From assembly GCA_964016885.1 (NCBI GenBank), contig OZ024752.1, forward strand, positions 34,348,001 through 34,412,000: a stretch of 64,000 nt of DNA, written 5' to 3'. Position 1 is the stretch's first letter; every line of letters begins with the position of its first letter. Below, piece after piece: positions 15,518 through 59,919 of the stretch. Under the pieces are notes generated by a model that was given only the letters and a program-made list of their open reading frames with translations, was not told where the DNA came from and ran no database searches. The stretch comes from Eledone cirrhosa. Taxonomy: Eukaryota. Made by a program: the position numbers and the translations under genes.

Positions 15518-16265
15518 GGAACGATCGACTTTCGTCAAAACGGACCGAGGAAACAATGTTTCCATTGGTCTTTCCAGTTGCTAATACTATCTATCGATGG
15601 CAACTCCAGGTAGAAGGAGCAACGTGAAATAAAGTGTCTTGCTCAAGGACATACGCATCCCCCGGTGAATGTTTAGTAAATCAGTTCGACCATAACCCTC
15701 CCCCCAGTTGTTGATCTTGTGCCTATATTAGATACTATTATTAGAAATTGGATTGGCAGTATTGGTAGAGGGTCGGACGCCGTGCTTTGCAGCAAAGAGT
15801 TACGTCCCTTTATGGTCTGAGTTCAAATCCCGCCGAGGTTAACTTTGCCTTTCATCCTTACGGGGACGATAAAATAAAGTACCAGTAATACACTGGGTAA
15901 TTGCTGGCCTTGTGCCAAAAGTAGAAATCATTATTATAATTATTTCTGATTGGCAGTATCGGTAGAGGGTCAGACACCATGCTTTGCAGCATAGAGTTAC
16001 GGTCCTTTTACTTTGCCTTTCATCTTTATGGGGTCGATAAAATAAGTACCAGTAATGTACTGGCATCTTGTACACTCAGTCGCTTCATGTCACGGAAACC
16101 TGGATAAACACCAGCCTGATGAGACTCCTGGCTCGAAACCAACTTTAACCTTGCGATGGACTGGTGTCCTGTCCAGGGGAGAGTCTTGTACTCTCAGTTA
16201 TTTAACATTACGGAAGCCGGAATAAGATCCGGCCTCATGAGCATCCGGGCTCAAGACAGACTTTA
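15518..16265. mobile_element. Cluster of SINE fragments from three families
   Basis: CORE-like SINE (minus, ~15518-15660), main family copies (+, ~15748-16062), V-domain-like cttgcgatggactggtgtcctgtccagggg tail (~16148-16265). Confidence 0.72.
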
Positions 16266-19878: not shown

Positions 19879-21235
19879 GGTAGAACTAATCAATAATCTC
19901 ACGAGTTTCAACAAAGTCGCTTCTCTACAAATTGTTCCTTCGCACTCGTTTATCAAACAGCGACCCGTAGATTCTTGTAAGATCTTCCTGTAAGAGTCAT
20001 TTTTATTCGTTCTTTTATCTGCCAAAATAATATTCTCTGTCTTTCTTTATATCTCATGATAAACTCAATTCTTCACCTGTTTCTACAAAATTTCTCATCT
20101 TTTTACTCCTACAACATAGATTACTATTTATTATCTGTCTATTCTTCTTCTTCCATACTTTCTAAATGTTCTTCTTTTGCACTATTCAGCTTCACCAATT
20201 CCTACACTTACAGATGTTCTTTCCATATAATCTACCCTTTTATATTTCTACTACTACTGCTGCTACTTCTTAAATCACACAAATCTACGTTTTTCTCTCA
20301 CAATTTATCATTTATCTTCTGCTTGCCGGAACAAATGAACATCGGTCGGCTGTCGGCCAATATTCACTTACTTCTAGACTAAACAAGATATATTTTCAAT
20401 GTTATGGACATCAGCCGAATTTATCCAGTGCTAGAAATATATTTACGTCTGAGGGCCCCCGCCCAGGCCGCCCTCATACAGAACAGACAAGCAGACAATA
20501 GAAATAACAATGGTTATTCTTATTATTGTTTGTCTGAAATATTTCATTGCGTGTTTTATTATCGAATTCCTCTTTTTAGCCCCCGTTCTGCTAGCATGTA
20601 TTACTCACGCTAAGGCGGGGGAATTGGCTGAATCGTTAGAACGTCAGATAGAATACTTTGTGGCATTAGTTTCGCCTCGCTACTTTCTGAGTTCAAATCC
20701 CACCGAGGTGAACTTTGCCTTTCATTCATTCAAAGTCGAGAAAAAGGACCAGTCAAGTACTGGGGTCGATTCATCCTCTATATCTCTTTCTTACTTTCAT
20801 TTTTTTCTATCATTCTCTATATTTCTCTGGAAAAAATCTGATGAATTCAGACGTGGAGAGGAGATGGACTCCACCAGATTATAAAAATGTCCTAGAAATG
20901 CCGTGTATCAATACTGCACCCTCACAACACCCCCAGGAGTTACGAGACCATGCATGCATTACTCACACATAGCTGTTAACCTTATTCTTAACACCAAAAC
21001 AGTAGAAGAGAGATGGTCAATGGTCATTTAGAAAAGTTATGGTACTAACACCATTCCACAGGGTGTTGTTCGAATTCTCTGTACGACTTCAAGCTATTTT
21101 TGGCTTTGAAAATACAATTAATTTCATGTTGCCTGTTACCGGTGATCGAATATGAACAAAACTAACGGTCTTTTTTATTATTAACTTTTATTTAAAAAAT
21201 ACCGTTACTTTTGTCGCACTCTATATATATATATA

Positions 21236-21441
21236 TAGGAACGAGTAGGACCCCGACGGCTGAGCTCAAGCCGTTTCGACGGCTAATTCTGGACTGTATT
21301 CTAGTCTAGAATTAGCCGTCGAAACGGCTTGAGCTCAGCCGTCGGGGTCCTACTCGTTCCTATTACCTACACTACTACCCTAAGTATTGAGTACTTTGGT
21401 GCGTTATGGTCCACCTGGGTCCTTACCACATTTCCTTCGTT
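21236..21441 (+). mobile_element. Penelope-like terminal fragment with fold-back inversion in (TA)n
   Basis: ~125-bp palindrome, then a tail shared with 22489, 24075, 57400 and 59428; holds the 3' half of the hammerhead seen complete at 57888-57983. Confidence 0.7.
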
Positions 21442-21649
21442 ATATATATATATATTTATATATATATTTTAGGATCGATCGACTTTCGTCAAATCGGACC
21501 GAGGAAACAATGTTTCCGTTGGTCTTTCCCGTTGCTAATACTACCTATCGGTCGCAACTCTAGGTAGAAAGAGCAACGTTAAATAAAGTGTCCAGGAATG
21601 GAACTCACAACCTCAACAATTCTCTAACTACTCAACTACACGCTTTCAC

Positions 21650-21719
<70 letters not shown>

Positions 21720-21735
21720 AAATATATATATATAC

Positions 21736-21933
21736 AGGAAAAGAGTCAGGACCCCGACGGCTGAGCTCCGGCCGTTTCGACAGATAGATCCGAACTGTTC
21801 GGATATAGCTGTCGAAACGGCTGGAGCTCAGTCGTCGGGGTCCTGACTCTTTTCCTATTACCCACTCTACTACCCTAAGTATTGAGTACTCTGGTGCGTT
21901 ATGGTCCACCTGGTATCTTACCACACCTGCTTT

Positions 21934-21937
<4 letters not shown>
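21736..21937 (+). mobile_element. Penelope-like terminal fragment (sister subfamily) with fold-back inversion
   Basis: Palindrome centred on ccgaactgttcgg; relatives at ~29600-29690 and 54391-54593; all between TA runs. Confidence 0.68.
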
Positions 21938-22017
<80 letters not shown>

Positions 22018-23663: not shown

Positions 23664-23893
23664 TTTATCATAAGTACAGATTAAAGTTTAAGCAAAGAAT
23701 CGCTGCTTTCACCCTTTTACGGGATCTTCAGAAACTGAGAAAAATCATTATTACTATATATATATATATATATATATTTCTCTCTCTCTCTCTCTCTCTC
23801 TATTATATATATATATATATATATATAAAAACATGAGAAGAAAGAAGAATACTGCGTGGTTTGCACATGGGTTACATATGATAAAAATAGTCC

Positions 23894-23964
23894 TTCGTCA
23901 GTGATTTTCCAACCATCATTGGTATTTCATCGCATTAAAAATCAGATACCTCAGGTTGGTGCGA
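23894..23964 (-). ncRNA. Candidate strand-reordered (pseudoknotted) hammerhead ribozyme, copy Y
   Basis: Minus strand: TCGCA CCAACC TGA GGTA TC^TGATTTT TAA TGCGA T GAAA TACC AAT GAT GGTTGG AAAATCA CTGACGA A; all helices pair; lies in a TA-flanked element at 23827-24045. Confidence 0.62.
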
Positions 23965-24041
23965 GCAATAACTAAAAAAAGTTATTGGGACCAGTAATCG
24001 CGTAAAGCGAGGGGGACAAGTGAACAACATAGAAGGATAAA

Positions 24042-24077
<36 letters not shown>

Positions 24078-24214
24078 AACAAGTAAGACCCCGTCGAAAC
24101 GGCTTGAGCTCAGCCGTCGGGGTCTTACTTGTTCCTATTACCCACTCTACTACTCTAAGTATTGAGTACTTTGGTGCGTTATGGTCCACCTGGTTCCTTA
24201 CCACATTTCCTTCG

Positions 24215-24311
<97 letters not shown>

Positions 24312-28679: not shown

Positions 28680-28741
28680 TATATATATATATATATTTTA
28701 ATATAGATGAGATTCTACAGGACTAGAACTGTTTCATTCTT

Positions 28742-28790
28742 GATTCCTGATGATTTCTAAAGAATGAAACAGTTCTAGTCCTGTAGAATC
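28742..28790 (+). ncRNA. Type I hammerhead ribozyme in a fold-back PLE terminus
   Basis: gattc CTGATGA tttctaaagaat GAAA CAG ttctagtc CTG TA^gaatc; its 3' part is inverted at 28697-28741; a related inverted fragment lies at 28926-29078. Confidence 0.68.
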
Positions 28791-28877
28791 TCATCTATAT
28801 TAAAACTTTTATACTCTGCAATGTAATGAGTACCTTACTTACTGTGGTTACCTCCGATTCAACCCGGAATAACGTAC

Positions 28878-33766: not shown

Positions 33767-34371
33767 CAGACCTGCCAATCTCTAAAATCCCAAACAGGGA
33801 GTACCATGAAAAACAGTACCTCCCGAAACGGGGAGATTTTACATAATTGTTTCTACGTTTTGGCACAAAGCCAGCAATTACCCAGTGCATTACTGGTACT
33901 TTATGTTATCGACCCCGTAAGGATGAAAGGCAAAGTTAACCTCGGCGAGATTTGAACTCAGAATGGCAAGGGCCGTAACTCTAATATGCCAAAGCATGGC
34001 GTCCGATGAAAGCTAAACTCATTTTTACAAGAAATTACATTTGTCATCCACCCCAAAGTGGGTGGGAGATCTCCCCGTCGGACGGGAAGAGTTGATAGCT
34101 CTGCAGTTATTCTATCTACCACGACATAGAATTATTATATCTGTATCTGTATATGTCATGGTAAATAGAATAAATGCAGACCTGTCATCTCTCCCCGTCC
34201 GACGGGGAGATCTCCCACCCACTTTGGGGTGGGTGAGAGATGTCTTCTCTTGGGAAAATGGGTATAGTTTTCATTATGTAAAATCTCACCATTTTGCTTC
34301 ATTTCTCCCCGTTTAGGGGCAGTTTTTCTCATGGTACTCCCCGTTTGTGTTTCTAGAGGTTGACAGGCCTG
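33767..34371. mobile_element. Two inverted copies of a ~195-bp hAT-like MITE (33767-34103, with a SINE at ~33845-34007; 34177-34371)
   Basis: CAGACCTGYCA-like termini; the second copy is the reverse complement of the first minus the SINE; no 8-bp TSD found. Confidence 0.7.
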
Positions 34372-34372
34372 T

Positions 34373-37300
34373 CTCTACCACGATATATACAGGTACAAAT
34401 ATAATCAGTCCATCTACCACGATATATACAGGTACATCAATGATCATTCCATCTACCACGGTACAAATATCAGTCCATCTACCACGATATATACAGGTAC
34501 AAATATAATCAGTCCATCTACCACAATATATACAGGTACAAATATAATCAGTCCATCTACCACGATATACACAGGTACAAATATAATCAGTCCATCTACC
34601 ACGATATATACAGGTACAAATATAATCAGTCCATCTACCACGATATATACAGGTACAAATATAATCAGTCCATCTACCACGATATATACAGGTACAAATA
34701 TAATCAGTACATCTATCACGATATATACAGGTACAAATATAATCATTCTATCTACCACGATATACACAGGTACAAATTTAATCAGTCTATCTACCACGAT
34801 ATATACAGGTACAAATATAATCAGTCCATCTACCACGATATATATAGGTACAAATATAATCAGTCCATCTACCACGATATATACAGGTACAAATATAATC
34901 AGTCCATCTACCACAATATATACAGGTACAAATATAATCAGTCCATCTACCACGATATATACAGGTACAAATATAATCAGTCCATCTACCACGATATACA
35001 CAGGTACAAATATAATCAGTCCATCTACCACGATATATACAGGTACAAATATAATCAGTCCATCTACCACGATATATACAGGTACAAATATAATCAGTCC
35101 ATCTACCACGATATATACAGGTACAAATATAATCATTCTATCTACCACGATATATACAGGTACAAATATAATCAGTCCATCTACCACGATATACACAGGT
35201 ACAAATATAATCAGTCCATCTACCACGATATACACAGGTACAAATATAATCAGTCCATCTACCACGATATATACAGGTACAAATATAATCAGTCCATCTA
35301 CCACGATATATACAGGTACAAATATAATCAGTCCATCTACCACGATATATACAGGTACAAATATAGTCAGTCCATCTACCACGATATATACAGGTACAAA
35401 TATAATCAGTCTATCTACCACGATATATACAGGTATAAATATAATCAGTCCATCTACCACAATATATACAGGTACAAATATAATCAGTCCATCTACCACG
35501 ATATATACAGGTACAAATATAATCAGTCCATCTACCACGATATACACAGGTACAAATATAATCATTCTATCTACCACGATATATACAGGTACAAATATAA
35601 TCAGTCCATCTACCACGATATATACAGGTACAAATATAATCAGTCCATCTACCACGATATATACAGGTACAAATATAATCAGTCCATCTACCACGATATA
35701 TACAGGTACAAATATAATCAGTCTATCTACCACGATATATACAGGTATAAATATAATCAGTCCATCTACCACAATATATACAGGTATAAATATAATCAGT
35801 CCATCTACCACAATATATACAGGTACAAATATAATCAGTCCATCTACCACGATATATACAGGTACAAATATAATCAGTCCATCTACCACGATATACACAG
35901 GTACAAATATAATCATTCTATCTACCACGATATATACAGGTATAAATATAATCAGTCCATCTACCACAATATATACAGGTACAAATATAATCAGTCCATC
36001 TACCACGATATATACAGGTACAAATATAATCAGTCCATCTACCACGATATACACAGGTACAAATATAATCATTCTATCTACCACGATATATACAGGTACA
36101 AATATAATCAGTCCATCTACCACGATATATACAGGTACAAATATAATCAGTCCATCTACCACGATATACACAGGTACAAATATAATCATTCTATCTACCA
36201 CGATATATACAGGTATAAATATAATCAGTCCATCTACCACAATATATACAGGTACAAATATAATCAGTCCATCTACCACGATATATACAGGTACAAATAT
36301 AATCAGTCCATCTACCACGATATACACAGGTACAAATATAATCATTCTATCTACCACGATATATACAGGTACAAATATAATCAGTCCATCTACCACGATA
36401 TACACAGGTACAAATATAATCATTCTATCTACCACGATATATACAGGTACAAATATAATCAGTCCATCTACCACGATATATACAGGTACAAATATAATCA
36501 GTCCATCTACCACGATATACACAGGTACAAATATAATCATTCTATCTACCACGATATATACAGGTATAAATATAATCAGTCCATCTACCACAATATATAC
36601 AGGTACAAATATAATCAGTCCATCTACCACGATATATACAGGTACAAATATAATCAGTCCATCTACCACGATATACACAGGTACAAATATAATCATTCTA
36701 TCTACCACGATATATACAGGTACAAATATAATCAGTCCATCTACCACGATATATACAGGTACAAATATAATCAGTCCATCTACCACGATATATACAGGTA
36801 CAAATATAATCAGTCCATCTACCACGATATACACAGGTACAAATATAATCATTCTATCTACCACGATATATACAGGTACAAATATAATCAGTCCATCTAC
36901 CACGATATATACAGGTACAAATATAATCAGTCCATCTACCACGATATATACAGGTACAAATATAATCATTCTATCTACCACGATATACACAGGTACAAAT
37001 ATAATCAGTCCATCTACCACGATATATACAGGTACATCAATGATCATTCCATCTACCACGGTACAAATATAATCAGTCCATCTACCACGATATATACAGG
37101 TACAAATATAATCAGTCCATCTACCACAATATATACAGGTACAAATATAATCAGTCCATCTACCACGATATATACAGGTACAAATATAATCAGTCCATCT
37201 AACACGATATATACAGGTACAAATATAATCATTCTATCTACCACGATATACACAGGTACAAATATAATCAGTCCATCTACCACAATATATACAGGTACAA

Positions 37301-38540
37301 ATATAATCAGTCCATCTACCACGATATATACAGGTACAAATATAATCAGTCCATCTACCACGATATACACAGGTACAAATATAATCAGTCCATCTACCAC
37401 AATATATACAGGTACAAATATAATCAGTCCATCTACCACGATATATACAGGTACAAATATAATCATTCTATCTACCACGATATACACAGGTACAAATATA
37501 ATCAGTCCATCTACCACGATATATACAGGTACAAATATAATCAGTCCATCTACCACGATATACACAGGTACAAATATAATCATTCTATCTACCACGATAT
37601 ATACAGGTACAAATATAATCAGTCCATCTACCACGATATATACAGGTACAAATATAATCAGTCCATCTACCACGATATATACAGGTACAAATATAATCAG
37701 TCCATCTACCACGATATATACAGGTACAAATATAATCAGTCCATCTACCACGATATATACAGGTACAAATATAATCAGTCTATCTACCACGATATATACA
37801 GGTATAAATATAATCAGTCCATCTACCACAATATATACAGGTACAAATATAATCAGTCCATCTACCACGATATATACAAGTACAAATATAATCAGTCCAT
37901 CTACCACGATATACACAGGTACAAATATAATCATTCTATCTACCACGATATATACAGGTACAAATATAATCAGTCCATCTACCACGATATATACAGGTAC
38001 AAATATAATCAGTCCATCTACCACGATATATACAGGTACAAATATAATCAGTCCATCTACCACGGTACACATATAATCAGTCCATCTACCACGATATATA
38101 CAGGTACAAATATAATCATTCTATCTACCACGATATACACAGGTACAAATATAATCAGTCCATCTACCACGATATATACAGGTACATCAATGATCATTCC
38201 ATCTACCACGGTACAAATATAATCAGTCCATCTACCACGATATATACAGGTACAAATATAATCATTCTATCTACCACGATATATACAGGTACAAATATAA
38301 TCATTCTATCTACCACGATATATACAGGTACAAATATAATCAGTCCATCTACCACGATATATACAGGTACAAATATAATCATTCTATCTACCACGATATA
38401 CACAGGTACAAATTTAAACAGTCCATCTACCACGATATATACAGGTACATCAATGATCATTCCATCTCCCACGATATATACAGGTACATCAATGATCATT
38501 CCATCTACCACGATATATACAGGTACAAATATAATCATTT
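34373..38540. repeat. 39-bp satellite, ~107 copies
   Basis: (ccatctaccacgatatatacaggtacaaatataatcagt)n. Confidence 0.97.
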
Positions 38541-38926
38541 TACTTTTCCTATAACTATCTATTCAGTTATGTGACAGCAGTAGAGCCTTAATGTTTTCTT
38601 TTTAATTAAGGTAAACTGGAAAGCAGAGATTGGTAGAATCGTTAGTGTTGGACAAAATACTGTTCAGTGTCGGACACATACAGGTACATTCATTCTATCC
38701 ACCACCTATTAATCTACCTCATTCGTCTTTACCCCTCCTCTAACCCCATCTGTTGTTTTTTGCCCGCCATCTCTCTGTCGTCCTGTTTATTCTGTTTTGA
38801 ATTTAGTAAAACCAAGGGTTCGAAGGAGTATGAATTTTTTTTGTACTTTTTCTTATTTTATTTTATATCGGGGGTTCGTAGTTTTATTTTCAGTGAAAAC
38901 CTGAAGCACATTTAAACAATCTATCT

Positions 38927-46915: not shown

Positions 46916-47174
46916 GAAATAGGGTACGCACAGGACAAAAGCGATAGAAAAAAATCGGAAAGATGGACTGACCCATGTCCTCAGTCAACCTCTAGAAATT
47001 ACTACAGTTTCGGCTAATAAAGGTCAGTATCGTTCATACCAGTGCACATTGGGACATAACAAAACAGGCAGAGACAAGCTATGCCTTTAGGCAAATTACA
47101 CAAATATAGAAAGCGCAAGGGCTGAGACAAAGGAGAAAAAAACATATATATACATATATATACTTACACACACC

Positions 47175-53922: not shown

Positions 53923-54157
53923 AGATTTGAATTCCTTTCAACTAAACTGTATCCATTCAAATCTTTCTATTTTTCTCCGGATTACTTTTGGAACTACAAC
54001 TGGAACCGTCGAGCAAACTCTACGTGAGCTGTCAATCTACCGTGTGTAATATTTATATTACAATACAACGGAAAATACTGTATATATATATATATAAAAA
54101 AACATAAGAAAGAATACTGCGTGGTTGCACATGGGTTACATATGATAAAAATAGTCC

Positions 54158-54229
54158 TTCGTCAGTGATTTTTCCAACCTTCATTGGTATTTCATAGCTT
54201 TAAAAATCATATACCTCCGGTTGGTGCGA
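54158..54229 (-). ncRNA. Candidate strand-reordered hammerhead, copy Z
   Basis: TCGCA CCAACC GGA GGTA TA^TGATTTT TAA AGCTA T GAAA TACC AAT GAA GGTTGG A AAAATCA CTGACGA A; one helix has two mismatches. Confidence 0.55.
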
Positions 54230-54329
54230 GCAATAGCTATATAAAGCTATTGGGACAAGTAAATCGCGTAAAGCGAGTGAGACAGTAAACAACAAGGAAG
54301 GATAGCAACGCAAAGATAGGAAAAAACAA

Positions 54330-54394
<65 letters not shown>

Positions 54395-54590
54395 AAAAGA
54401 GTCGAGACACCGACGGCTGAGCTCCGGCCGTTTCGACAGCTAGATCCGAACAATTTGGATCTAGCTGTCGAAACGGCCGGAGCTCAGCCGTCGGGGTCCT
54501 GACTCTTTTCCTATTACCCACTCTACTACCCTAAGTATCGAGTACTCTGATGCGTTATGGTCCACCTGGTATCTTACCACTCTTTCTTTG

Positions 54591-54624
<34 letters not shown>

Positions 54625-54707
54625 AAGTTTGTCCTCATCAGTGGCCTTCCAACCGTCGTAGGCATTTCGTCGCATTAAAGGCCATAACGACTTTGTTTAG
54701 CCGTTGC

Positions 54708-54778
54708 TCGCACCAACCTGAGGTATATGGCCTTTAATGCGACGAAATGCCTACGACGGTTGGAAGGCCACTGATGAG
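54708..54778 (+). ncRNA. Candidate strand-reordered hammerhead, copy X
   Basis: TCGCA CCAACC TGA GGTA TA^TGGCCTT TAA TGCGA C GAAA TGCC TAC GAC GGTTGG AAGGCCA CTGATGA G; inverted partial copy at 54620-54686. Confidence 0.62.
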
Positions 54779-54827
54779 GACAAACTTTTTCATATGTAAC
54801 CCATTTGCAGCGCCGCAGTTCCATTAT

Positions 54828-54863
<36 letters not shown>

Positions 54864-54917
54864 CCTGTAGAAGTAATCAAAGTGTGTATACGTTTTTTTT
54901 TTGGGGGGGGGGACACC

Positions 54918-54968
<51 letters not shown>

Positions 54969-55071
54969 GGGTGTCCCCCCAAAAAACGTATACACACTTT
55001 GATTACTTCTACAGGCAATATTTATTAGAATGCTGTTGAAGTGTGTATATATTTTTGGGGTAGTAGTGGTA

Positions 55072-57329: not shown

Positions 57330-57399
<70 letters not shown>

Positions 57400-57400
<1 letters not shown>

Positions 57401-57998
57401 GGAGGAAATGTGGTAAGGAACCAGGTGGACCATAACGCACCAAAGTACTCAATACTTAGGGTAGTAGAGTGGGTAATAGGAACGAGTAGGACCCCGGCGG
57501 CTGAGCTCAAGCCGTTTCGACGGCTAATTCTGGACTAAATGAACATTTTTATCCTGGTATTTGAATAGCCGAGCTTCTCAAGGGGTAATTCCATATATGG
57601 TCAAAGTGATTGTCACAAGGATTGGTCAAAAGTTTGTTGTTGAGACATAATAATTCTATGATGGCAATTTGTGGAGGGAAGGGGTAGCTAAACCTGCCAG
57701 TAGGAGAAAGAGGGAGAGGGGGTGGAGGAGACCCATTCATGCGTTGATAGTGCCGACTACAGCTGGGCATGAGGTCAAAGAAGATACTAGGGAGGGGGAG
57801 GGGGAGGAAGTCGACTAGAATTATTATGTCTCAACAACAAACTTTTGACCAATCCTTGTGACAATTACTTTAACCATATATGGAATTACCCCTTGAGAAG
57901 CTCGGCTATTCAAATACCAGGATAAAAATTTTCATTTAGTCCAGAATTAGCCGTCGAAACGGCTTGAGCTCAGCCGTCGGGGTCCTACTCGTTCCTAT
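57400..57998. mobile_element. Penelope-like terminus with ~180-bp inverted arms
   Basis: Arms at ~57477-57658 and ~57816-57997, each with a hammerhead fold; flanked by TA runs. Confidence 0.75.
57888..57983 (+). ncRNA. Type I hammerhead ribozyme, U3-A8 core
   Basis: acccc TTGAGAA gct CGGCTA..TAGCCG tc GAAA CGGCT tgagctc AGCCG TC^ggggt; the mirror copy at 57491-57586 has GUC mutated to GCC. Confidence 0.7.
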
Positions 57999-59372: not shown

Positions 59373-59429
<57 letters not shown>

Positions 59430-59919
59430 CGAAAGAAATGTGGTAAGGAACCAGGTGGACCATAACGCATCAAAGTACTCAATACTTAGGGTAGTAGAGT
59501 GGGTAATAAGAACGAGTAGGACCCCGACGGCTGAGCTCAGCCGTCGGGGTCCTACTCGTTCCTATATATATATATAACTTTGATAACTTTGATAGGTTTC
59601 GGCCAGTATTGGCCCAGGCCATGTCTAACTTAATAGCACCACCTGGCTATATATATATATATATATGTGTGTATGTATCGACTAGCTTTCCCGTATATAC
59701 ATTGAAAGAGAAATGAAATTATGTAACGACCATTGCTTTACAAGAATGGAAGTAAAAAGTAAACTGGTTTCAACTGAGAATCGAAACCGGACGGGAACCG
59801 TCGTCCCGTCCCCCAATAACCGACAACTTACATCTACGGTGTTCCTGGCTGTTAGCTTGTTACTTTGATACAAACAATGATTGTTTAGTTTTTCGCATCT
59901 GTTTGATTTCGTTACATAT

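Follow-up and report, generated by a model that had tools for sequence, protein, structure and literature searches.

A standard kink-turn as the likely hinge of a re-ordered hammerhead in a Penelope-like repeat of Eledone cirrhosa

Introduction

A 64,000-nt stretch of the Eledone cirrhosa genome (positions 34,348,001 to 34,412,000 of contig OZ024752.1, assembly GCA_964016885.1; here called the window) contains several copies of a repeat in which a hammerhead core is combined with an internal loop resembling a kink-turn (k-turn). An earlier note on this DNA had compared the loop in three copies. It proposed that the bend is selected and could bind an L7Ae-family protein such as SNU13/15.5K, by which cleavage would become protein-assisted. 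The question raised by the locus is thus what a k-turn does in a self-cleaving RNA, and whether a protein is involved. Our reading of the sequences is that the standard k-turn in this re-ordered hammerhead is likely a hinge, predicted to fold in Mg2+ without protein; we give this a probability of about two in three.

The locus and its predicted fold

The copy at 54097..54332 belongs to a repeat whose close relatives here occur as tandem units of about 520 nt each. It comprises the following parts, given in the direction of the minus strand.

54097..54332, minus strand: copy, truncated at its 5' end, of a non-coding Penelope-like repeat; flanked by (TA)n runs
54253..54256, minus strand: GUCC, partner of the GGAC after the CUGACGA core (outer helix)
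54231..54252, minus strand: hairpin of 8 bp that likely forms an arm of a four-way junction at stem II
54225..54229, minus strand: UCGCA, third strand extending stem II, pairs with 54199-54195; two mismatches in this copy
54219..54224, minus strand: distal (NC) helix of the k-turn, 5' strand
54216..54218, minus strand: non-bulged strand of the k-turn (G3n, G2n, A1n)
54203..54215, minus strand: block S, i. e. stem III 5' strand (C helix of the k-turn, -1n = G), AUA triplet and stem I 5' strand
54186..54202, minus strand: UAA linker, stem II 3' strand and block G (U11.1, GAAA, stem III 3' strand with -1b = C)
54180..54185, minus strand: bulged strand of the k-turn, loop AAU (L3 = U), then G1b, A2b, A3b
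54174..54179, minus strand: distal (NC) helix, 3' strand
54154..54173, minus strand: block C, i. e. stem I 3' strand (one extra A), CUGACGA, A10.1 and GGAC

The hammerhead blocks stand in the order cleavage site, GAAA, CUGANGA with the full core intact, which makes this a type-SGC, non-circularly permuted hammerhead. Folding as a canonical type I, II or III hammerhead was rejected, as GAAA comes after the site block, with which it pairs across stem I. By analogy with other hammerheads, the cut is predicted between 54210 and 54209, after the AUA triplet of block S on the minus strand. Stem II consists of one pair and its third-strand continuation, at a likely four-way junction. The stem II extension, stem III and stem I mutually cross, their far ends are joined by 0-3 nt, and all six strands of the fold lie within about 105 nt of one copy. 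The k-turn loop interrupts the extended stem III of the motif. In the copy at 54097..54332 it consists of GGA (54218-54216) opposite AAT-GAA (54185-54180), flanked by a 6-bp helix (54224-54219/54179-54174) and a 4-bp helix (54215-54212/54189-54186).

This copy had been suspected of decay because of two mismatches in its TCGCA helix. Both mismatches are present (in the order pair, mismatch, pair, pair, mismatch). Among the 30 closest loci, 28 relatives could be placed by script for comparison, and 26 of these carry AGCGA on the partner strand, so that the distal A.A mismatch is a property of the family. Private to this copy are one base of the partner strand and the extra A in stem I. Hence one mismatched base speaks for decay, whereas the family-wide A.A mismatch and the intact hammerhead core and k-turn speak against it. 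Eight of the 28 relatives have no G2n; all eight fall within a single duplicated stretch of contig C12 and are treated as a single event.

Further copies were located elsewhere in the window, the fourth of which the earlier note had missed.

23827..24039, minus strand: third copy (U.U, loop AAU), 88% identical to the copy at 54097..54332
46973..47047, minus strand: fourth, diverged copy of an older family (UGA / AGU, G1b lost)
54614-54686, minus strand: inverted partial copy without 3' tail, joined to the second subfamily copy
54690-54830, plus strand: second subfamily copy (C.U, loop UAC), within 54614..54830

The loops of the two other full copies are TGA/AAT-GAT at 23.9 kb (23953-23951/23920-23915, minus strand; third pair U.U) and TGA/TAC-GAC at 54.7 kb (54719-54721/54752-54757, plus strand; third pair C.U). 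The three loop sequences are as the earlier note had given them, and the coordinates bear out its series of third pairs (U.U, C.U, A.G). All three copies have G1b.A1n and A2b.G2n, a 3-nt bulge 5' of G1b and C-G at -1b.-1n. ViennaRNA predicted the 3x6 loop in the copies at 54097..54332 and 23.9 kb (z -2.3 and -2.9); for the 54.7 kb copy, whose excised sequence lacked the 5' helix strand, the minimum free energy fold did not contain it (z 0.05). A search of the whole window against Rfam at the gathering threshold gave no hits.

Other repeats of the window were recorded in passing. Hammerhead-like cores in canonical order (CUGANGA...GAAA) occur in other repeats at 16116-16140 (plus), 39222 (minus) and 39518 (minus), again with no Rfam match at the gathering threshold. 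Another (TA)n-inserted repeat with fold-back 5' ends lies at 54390-54600, 21235-21945, 24093-24284, 57331-57526 and 59376-59576; it is 5'-truncated, and what it carries resembles half of a canonical hammerhead, namely GAAA, stem III and the UC site. At 54860-55020 and 28700-28800, short inverted fold-back repeats next to (TA)n resemble inverted 5' repeat ends, and 34340-38800 is a tandem array with a period of 39 nt and units about 96-98% identical.

Conservation of the helices and of the k-turn

The fold was examined in an alignment of 78 copies (71 of a position-ordered sample of 72, the three window copies and four diverged copies), from which one copy with a deletion had been excluded; pairing statistics refer to the 69 distinct rows. 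Pairing was found in 92.0% of cells, compared with 81.3% after shuffling and 30-44% in slid controls; the model was derived from the same, related rows, so these percentages are not probabilities. Changes on both sides of a pair occurred in 18 of 23 pairs, including 6 of 6 in the NC helix and 4 of 5 in the C helix, i. e. in 10 of the 11 pairs that flank the k-turn. The C and NC helices were 95.1% and 93.5% paired, stem I 96%, stem III 95% and the third strand of stem II 83%, and pair 10.1-11.1 was formed in 87% of rows by four pair types.

Genome-wide, the pattern GAAA-N7-GA-N14-CTGANGA matched 25,677 places (347 in the control), and the repeat has about 25,000 copies. Conservation of the bulged strand was assessed by such patterns across the genome, that of the non-bulged strand in fetched samples. 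With base-loss patterns slightly stricter than the one above, a changed A2b was matched 527 times (65 in the control) and a changed catalytic G5 796 times (136 in the control; about one third of the listed matches are an unrelated palindrome). Thus A2b decays no faster than the catalytic base. A changed G1b gave 2,312 matches (1,278 in the control), which include a tandem array and register-shifted families.

The array, at G000:C1:81.63-81.70 Mb, consists of units of this repeat of about 514 nt with many cores lacking G1b or G5, and was likely amplified as DNA after decay. Short palindromic repeats with CUGAUGA-like arms on both strands (L215, L243, L252 and many others) are either chance matches to the core or a distinct element. 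Further GAAA...CUGANGA families exist at other spacings (L254, L241, L223, L225; 2,695 matches against 401 in the control, and 3,601 against 439); several of these failed the SGC filter and may have other architectures.

For the non-bulged strand, the first 100 of the 25,677 places were taken, of which 98 were recovered and filtered on cleavage site, stem I and distal helix. This left 74 intact copies; the 24 removed were truncated, inverted or chance matches, together with five real diverged copies. Since sampling was at fixed spacing, the bulge length in this set is given by the pattern, and register-shifted families exist. The following counts are of related copies and not of independent events. 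A1n was present in 70 and G2n in 68 of the 74 copies, and GA at 2n,1n in 66. The -1b.-1n pair was C-G in 66 copies and G-C in none. As the third pair we found U.U (32), C.U (15), U.G (11), A.A (6), A.G (4) and others (6). A Watson-Crick third pair occurred in one of 67 distinct copies against 13.3 expected by shuffling (the copies being related), and on the tree the third pair moves repeatedly among non-Watson-Crick states. No constraint is apparent at loop position L1; at L2, 73 of 74 copies have a purine, and the complete box C/D-like UGAUG / CUGA was found in 15 of 74.

Judged by sequence, these results support a standard k-turn that is selected across subfamilies. The earlier proposal that the bend is under selection agrees with them in three respects: the helices covary, A2b is lost no more often than G5, and the third pair avoids Watson-Crick states (1/67).

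Families without the GA pairs

The earlier note had also called the tandem GA pairs and the 3-nt bulge invariant. This is true of the three window copies it had compared and does not extend to the whole family. Several families have U at 2n instead of G2n, a known k-turn variant represented by Kt-23 (PMC5061560). In a sister family whose general layout is the same (136 exact matches, none in the control), none of 30 copies has GA at 2n,1n. In about 12 of these 30, the bulged-strand GA forms Watson-Crick pairs behind its 3-nt bulge; among the rest, a 5x2 loop or an opposite-strand bulge is the usual arrangement. Most intact copies of this sister family fold with a 3-nt bulge or an asymmetric loop at the place of the k-turn. 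A further family carries its bulge, of 5 nt, on the other strand.

Published Naiad ends, read by eye in the supplement of PMC8557442, are similarly divided. The 3' ends of Naiad_Obim and Naiad_Ovul have the same hairpin, the SGC order and a k-turn, with UGA opposite AAU-GAU or AGU-GAU and U-A as the -1 pair. Five other Naiad ends have the SGC order and bulges, and no GA pairs. The constant feature at this place is asymmetry. The sister family without GA pairs always keeps a bulge or loop there, and hence the bend, rather than the k-turn, looks essential from these sequences.

Folding without protein and the hinge

In known hammerheads, stem III is directed away from stems I and II. Far-end links of 0-3 nt therefore need a sharp bend. 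For SGC hammerheads it has been noted that a direct link from the far end of stem III to stems I and II is hard to fit to the known structure (PMC10085705), and the bend of a k-turn leaves an included angle of about 50 degrees between the helical arms (PMC5061560). We propose that the k-turn is a hinge which would fold stem III back so that its far end meets the far ends of stems I and II. The sharp bend would be supplied by the k-turn in most subfamilies and by other bulges in the sister families. It is predicted to need no protein for its formation in Mg2+. Once folded, the ribozyme would release monomers from tandem transcripts for retrotransposition through a partner of the Naiad type. In subfamilies with L3 = U the RNA may be stabilised by an L7Ae-family protein, which is probably not required for cutting.

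The expectation of folding without protein follows published rules. Box C/D k-turns fail to fold in Mg2+ mainly through their -1 G-C pair (PMC5689011); -1 C-G folds and G-C does not (PMC5689011, PMC8191799), and at least some folding was seen in all constructs with -1n = G (PMC5689011). Folding is promoted by 3n = G or 3b = C and blocked by a Watson-Crick third pair (PMC4382518, PMC8191799). The assignment of U.U to the box C/D type and of A.G to the Kt-7 type in the earlier note agrees with the literature (PMC4382518, PMC5689011). A.G, C.U and U.G are ion-folding types. With its -1 C-G pair and A.G third pair, the copy at 54097..54332 is predicted to fold unaided, its type being the best folder by these rules. 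The commonest type, U.U with G-C at 4b.4n, is by the same rules only a middle folder, and -1 U-A, present in the older family and the two octopus Naiads, a weak one. Tertiary contacts alone can also fold a k-turn and rescue weak ones, and other kinks can substitute for it (PMC5061560). In protein-free transcription assays, cleavage rates of 0.007-0.19 per min were reported for SGC ribozymes (PMC10085705).

Is a protein involved, or is the loop a plain bulge?

That an L7Ae-family protein would bind this k-turn in vitro is very likely. Whether binding plays a role in the cell can be approached through loop position L3, which sits in the protein pocket of 15.5K/Snu13p and L7Ae (PMC1874613), while the sequence of the bulge loop hardly affects ion folding (PMC5689011). 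Among 93 distinct sample copies, L3 was U in 67 of the 70 without 3b = C and in 1 of the 23 with it; the three exceptions without 3b = C are two sister-family copies and one chance match. Ion folding does not explain this retention of L3 = U, which therefore hints at binding of the SNU13 type in part of the family. Possibly, selection in that part has favoured in vivo binding of the k-turn by host SNU13/15.5K or another protein of the L7Ae family, which would there speed or time cleavage, or protect the monomer, where the third pair folds weakly; subfamilies with 3b = C would be independent of it and L3 would drift. We hold this idea as tentative and on balance doubtful. In its favour, 3b = C is also carried by 82 of the 100 listed among 5,700 genome matches with L3 other than U (23 in the control; counted by eye), and L2, at which a purine raises Snu13p affinity (PMC1874613), is nearly always a purine although L1 varies. 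On the tree, the L3-free state with 3b = C turns up at three separate places. Moreover, U.U was preferred in Snu13p selection (PMC1874613), and the older family and the two octopus Naiads keep UGAU/UGA as well. However, about 22% of copies, including a young abundant family, have no U at L3, and A.G and U.G, good folders by rule, retain L3 = U, which leaves the trade-off incomplete. Spread is also seen in families with U at 2n, one of which has L3 = C with 3b = U, and in the sister family without a k-turn. The association of L3 with 3b amounts to only three or four independent events, and the Fisher p overstates it.

A stricter dependence, in which the RNA stays extended until SNU13 binds, as in U4 and box C/D RNAs, is very improbable. 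The complete UGAUG / CUGA in 15 of 74 copies and U.U as the commonest third pair would fit it, but the features that block folding are absent (-1 G-C in 0/74, a Watson-Crick third pair in 1/67), the copy at 54097..54332 itself carries the best-folding A.G, and there are sister families without the binding site. The earlier suggestion of protein-assisted cleavage is thus opposed by the -1 C-G pair in 66 of 74 copies, with G-C in none, and by the k-turn-less sisters; what speaks for it is the retention of L3 = U in copies without 3b = C. At the other extreme, the loop could be merely a flexible bulge with GA pairs kept by descent, or two RNAs could form a dimer in which no sharp bend is needed. 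The sister-family copies that keep GA on the bulged strand in Watson-Crick pairs (about 12 of 30) would suit the former. For the latter, small Penelope hammerheads reportedly cleave as dimers, and the copies are often tandem. Yet G1b, A2b and A1n persist despite rewritten helices, including in the old family and the published Naiads, the third pair moves only among non-Watson-Crick states, and all six strands fit into one copy. We regard both forms of this explanation as quite unlikely, and favour the hinge that folds without protein.

The element carrying the ribozyme

The relatives of the copy at 54097..54332 are tandem and 5'-truncated, lie inside (TA)n and are often joined to inverted copies that stop short of the 3' tail. 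Of the cores, 36 end about 15 nt before the TA run and 90 at 55-69 nt. Penelope-like elements and Naiads likewise use (TA)n targets and form tandem and inverted 5'-truncated copies with a tail at one end (PMC8557442). The link to a Naiad-type element comes from the published Naiad ends, as read by eye. Upstream of GAAA, 38 non-intact copies matched over anything from 1 to 29 nt; 2 stop at the predicted cut and 7 are untruncated, and the 5' break points do not accumulate at this cut.

An autonomous Naiad-type partner with this 3' end was not found among 20 examined loci of 150 scored for GIY-YIG. In their open reading frames RT precedes EN, and they do not end in an SGC motif themselves; being C-terminal-EN elements in which the repeat is at most nested, they were rejected as partners. 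Three loci (L296, L297, L298) have Penelope-like open frames of 839-1096 aa with RT before GIY-YIG. A 395-aa frame upstream of one copy was also rejected, since by its translation, read without a family scan, it looks like a LINE-type RT. Upstream of the diverged families no partner frame was found.

Comparison with known systems

The k-turn of the copy at 54097..54332 shares with Kt-7 of H. marismortui and the SAM-I k-turn the 3-nt bulge, the G.A and A.G pairs, the -1 C-G and the A.G third pair (PMC4382518, PMC5061560, PMC8191799). The role proposed here, a hinge for a long-range contact, would be shared with Kt-7 and the SAM-I riboswitch's k-turn. Unlike these, it sits in the arm of a retroelement hammerhead, has G-C at 4b.4n and the loop AAU with L3 = U. 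With the box C/D and U4 k-turns bound by 15.5K/Snu13 (PMC5689011, PMC1874613), the commonest subfamilies have U.U, UGAU/UGA and L3 = U in common. In contrast to box C/D, the -1 pair is C-G and not G-C, the copy at 54097..54332 has A.G instead of U.U, the D-like strand comes first, and there is neither a guide nor a snoRNA layout nor an Rfam match in the window.

HRIMA-1 and its variants, the type-SGC hammerheads described in the main text of Eckert et al. 2023 (PMC10085705), have the same S-G-C order, full core, 3-nt linker between stems I and II and crossing helices. They come from metatranscriptomes, none from genomes of known organisms, and the word "kink" is absent from that main text. What sets the repeat apart from HRIMA-1 is a stem II made of a single pair and a third strand, likely at a four-way junction, and a stem III that continues through the k-turn. 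Naiads (Craig et al. 2021, PMC8557442) and non-LTR retrozymes (bioRxiv 10.64898/2026.07.22.740005) resemble the repeat in (TA)n, in tandem or inverted 5'-truncated copies and in the tail at one end; neither "kink" nor "SGC" occurs in the main text of the 2026 preprint. Naiads were reported to be without canonical hammerheads (PMC8557442), and unlike Naiads this repeat is non-coding. In the literature searched, which covered few subscription papers, we found no natural hammerhead with a k-turn, no animal SGC hammerhead and no small self-cleaving ribozyme tied to a core host RNP protein.

Implications

The hinge would answer a geometric puzzle of SGC hammerheads, i. e. how stem III can bring its far end to stems I and II. 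It would also place the rare SGC topology in tens of thousands of copies of an animal retroelement, from a group reported to be hammerhead-less. Among the subfamilies, full k-turns with five kinds of third pair, a variant with U at 2n, a plain bulge and a bulge on the opposite strand make up a natural series, in which the folding rules of k-turns may be readable as cleavage rate. If the L3 pattern reflects binding of SNU13, the repeat would link a small self-cleaving ribozyme to a central protein of host RNPs. One could then imagine a natural RNP hammerhead: Naiad-type retroelements would have given a knotted ribozyme a k-turn of the snoRNA style, host SNU13 would gate their self-cleavage or shelter the monomer, and lineages would escape by changing 3b to C or by adopting a plain bulge; this we consider rather unlikely.
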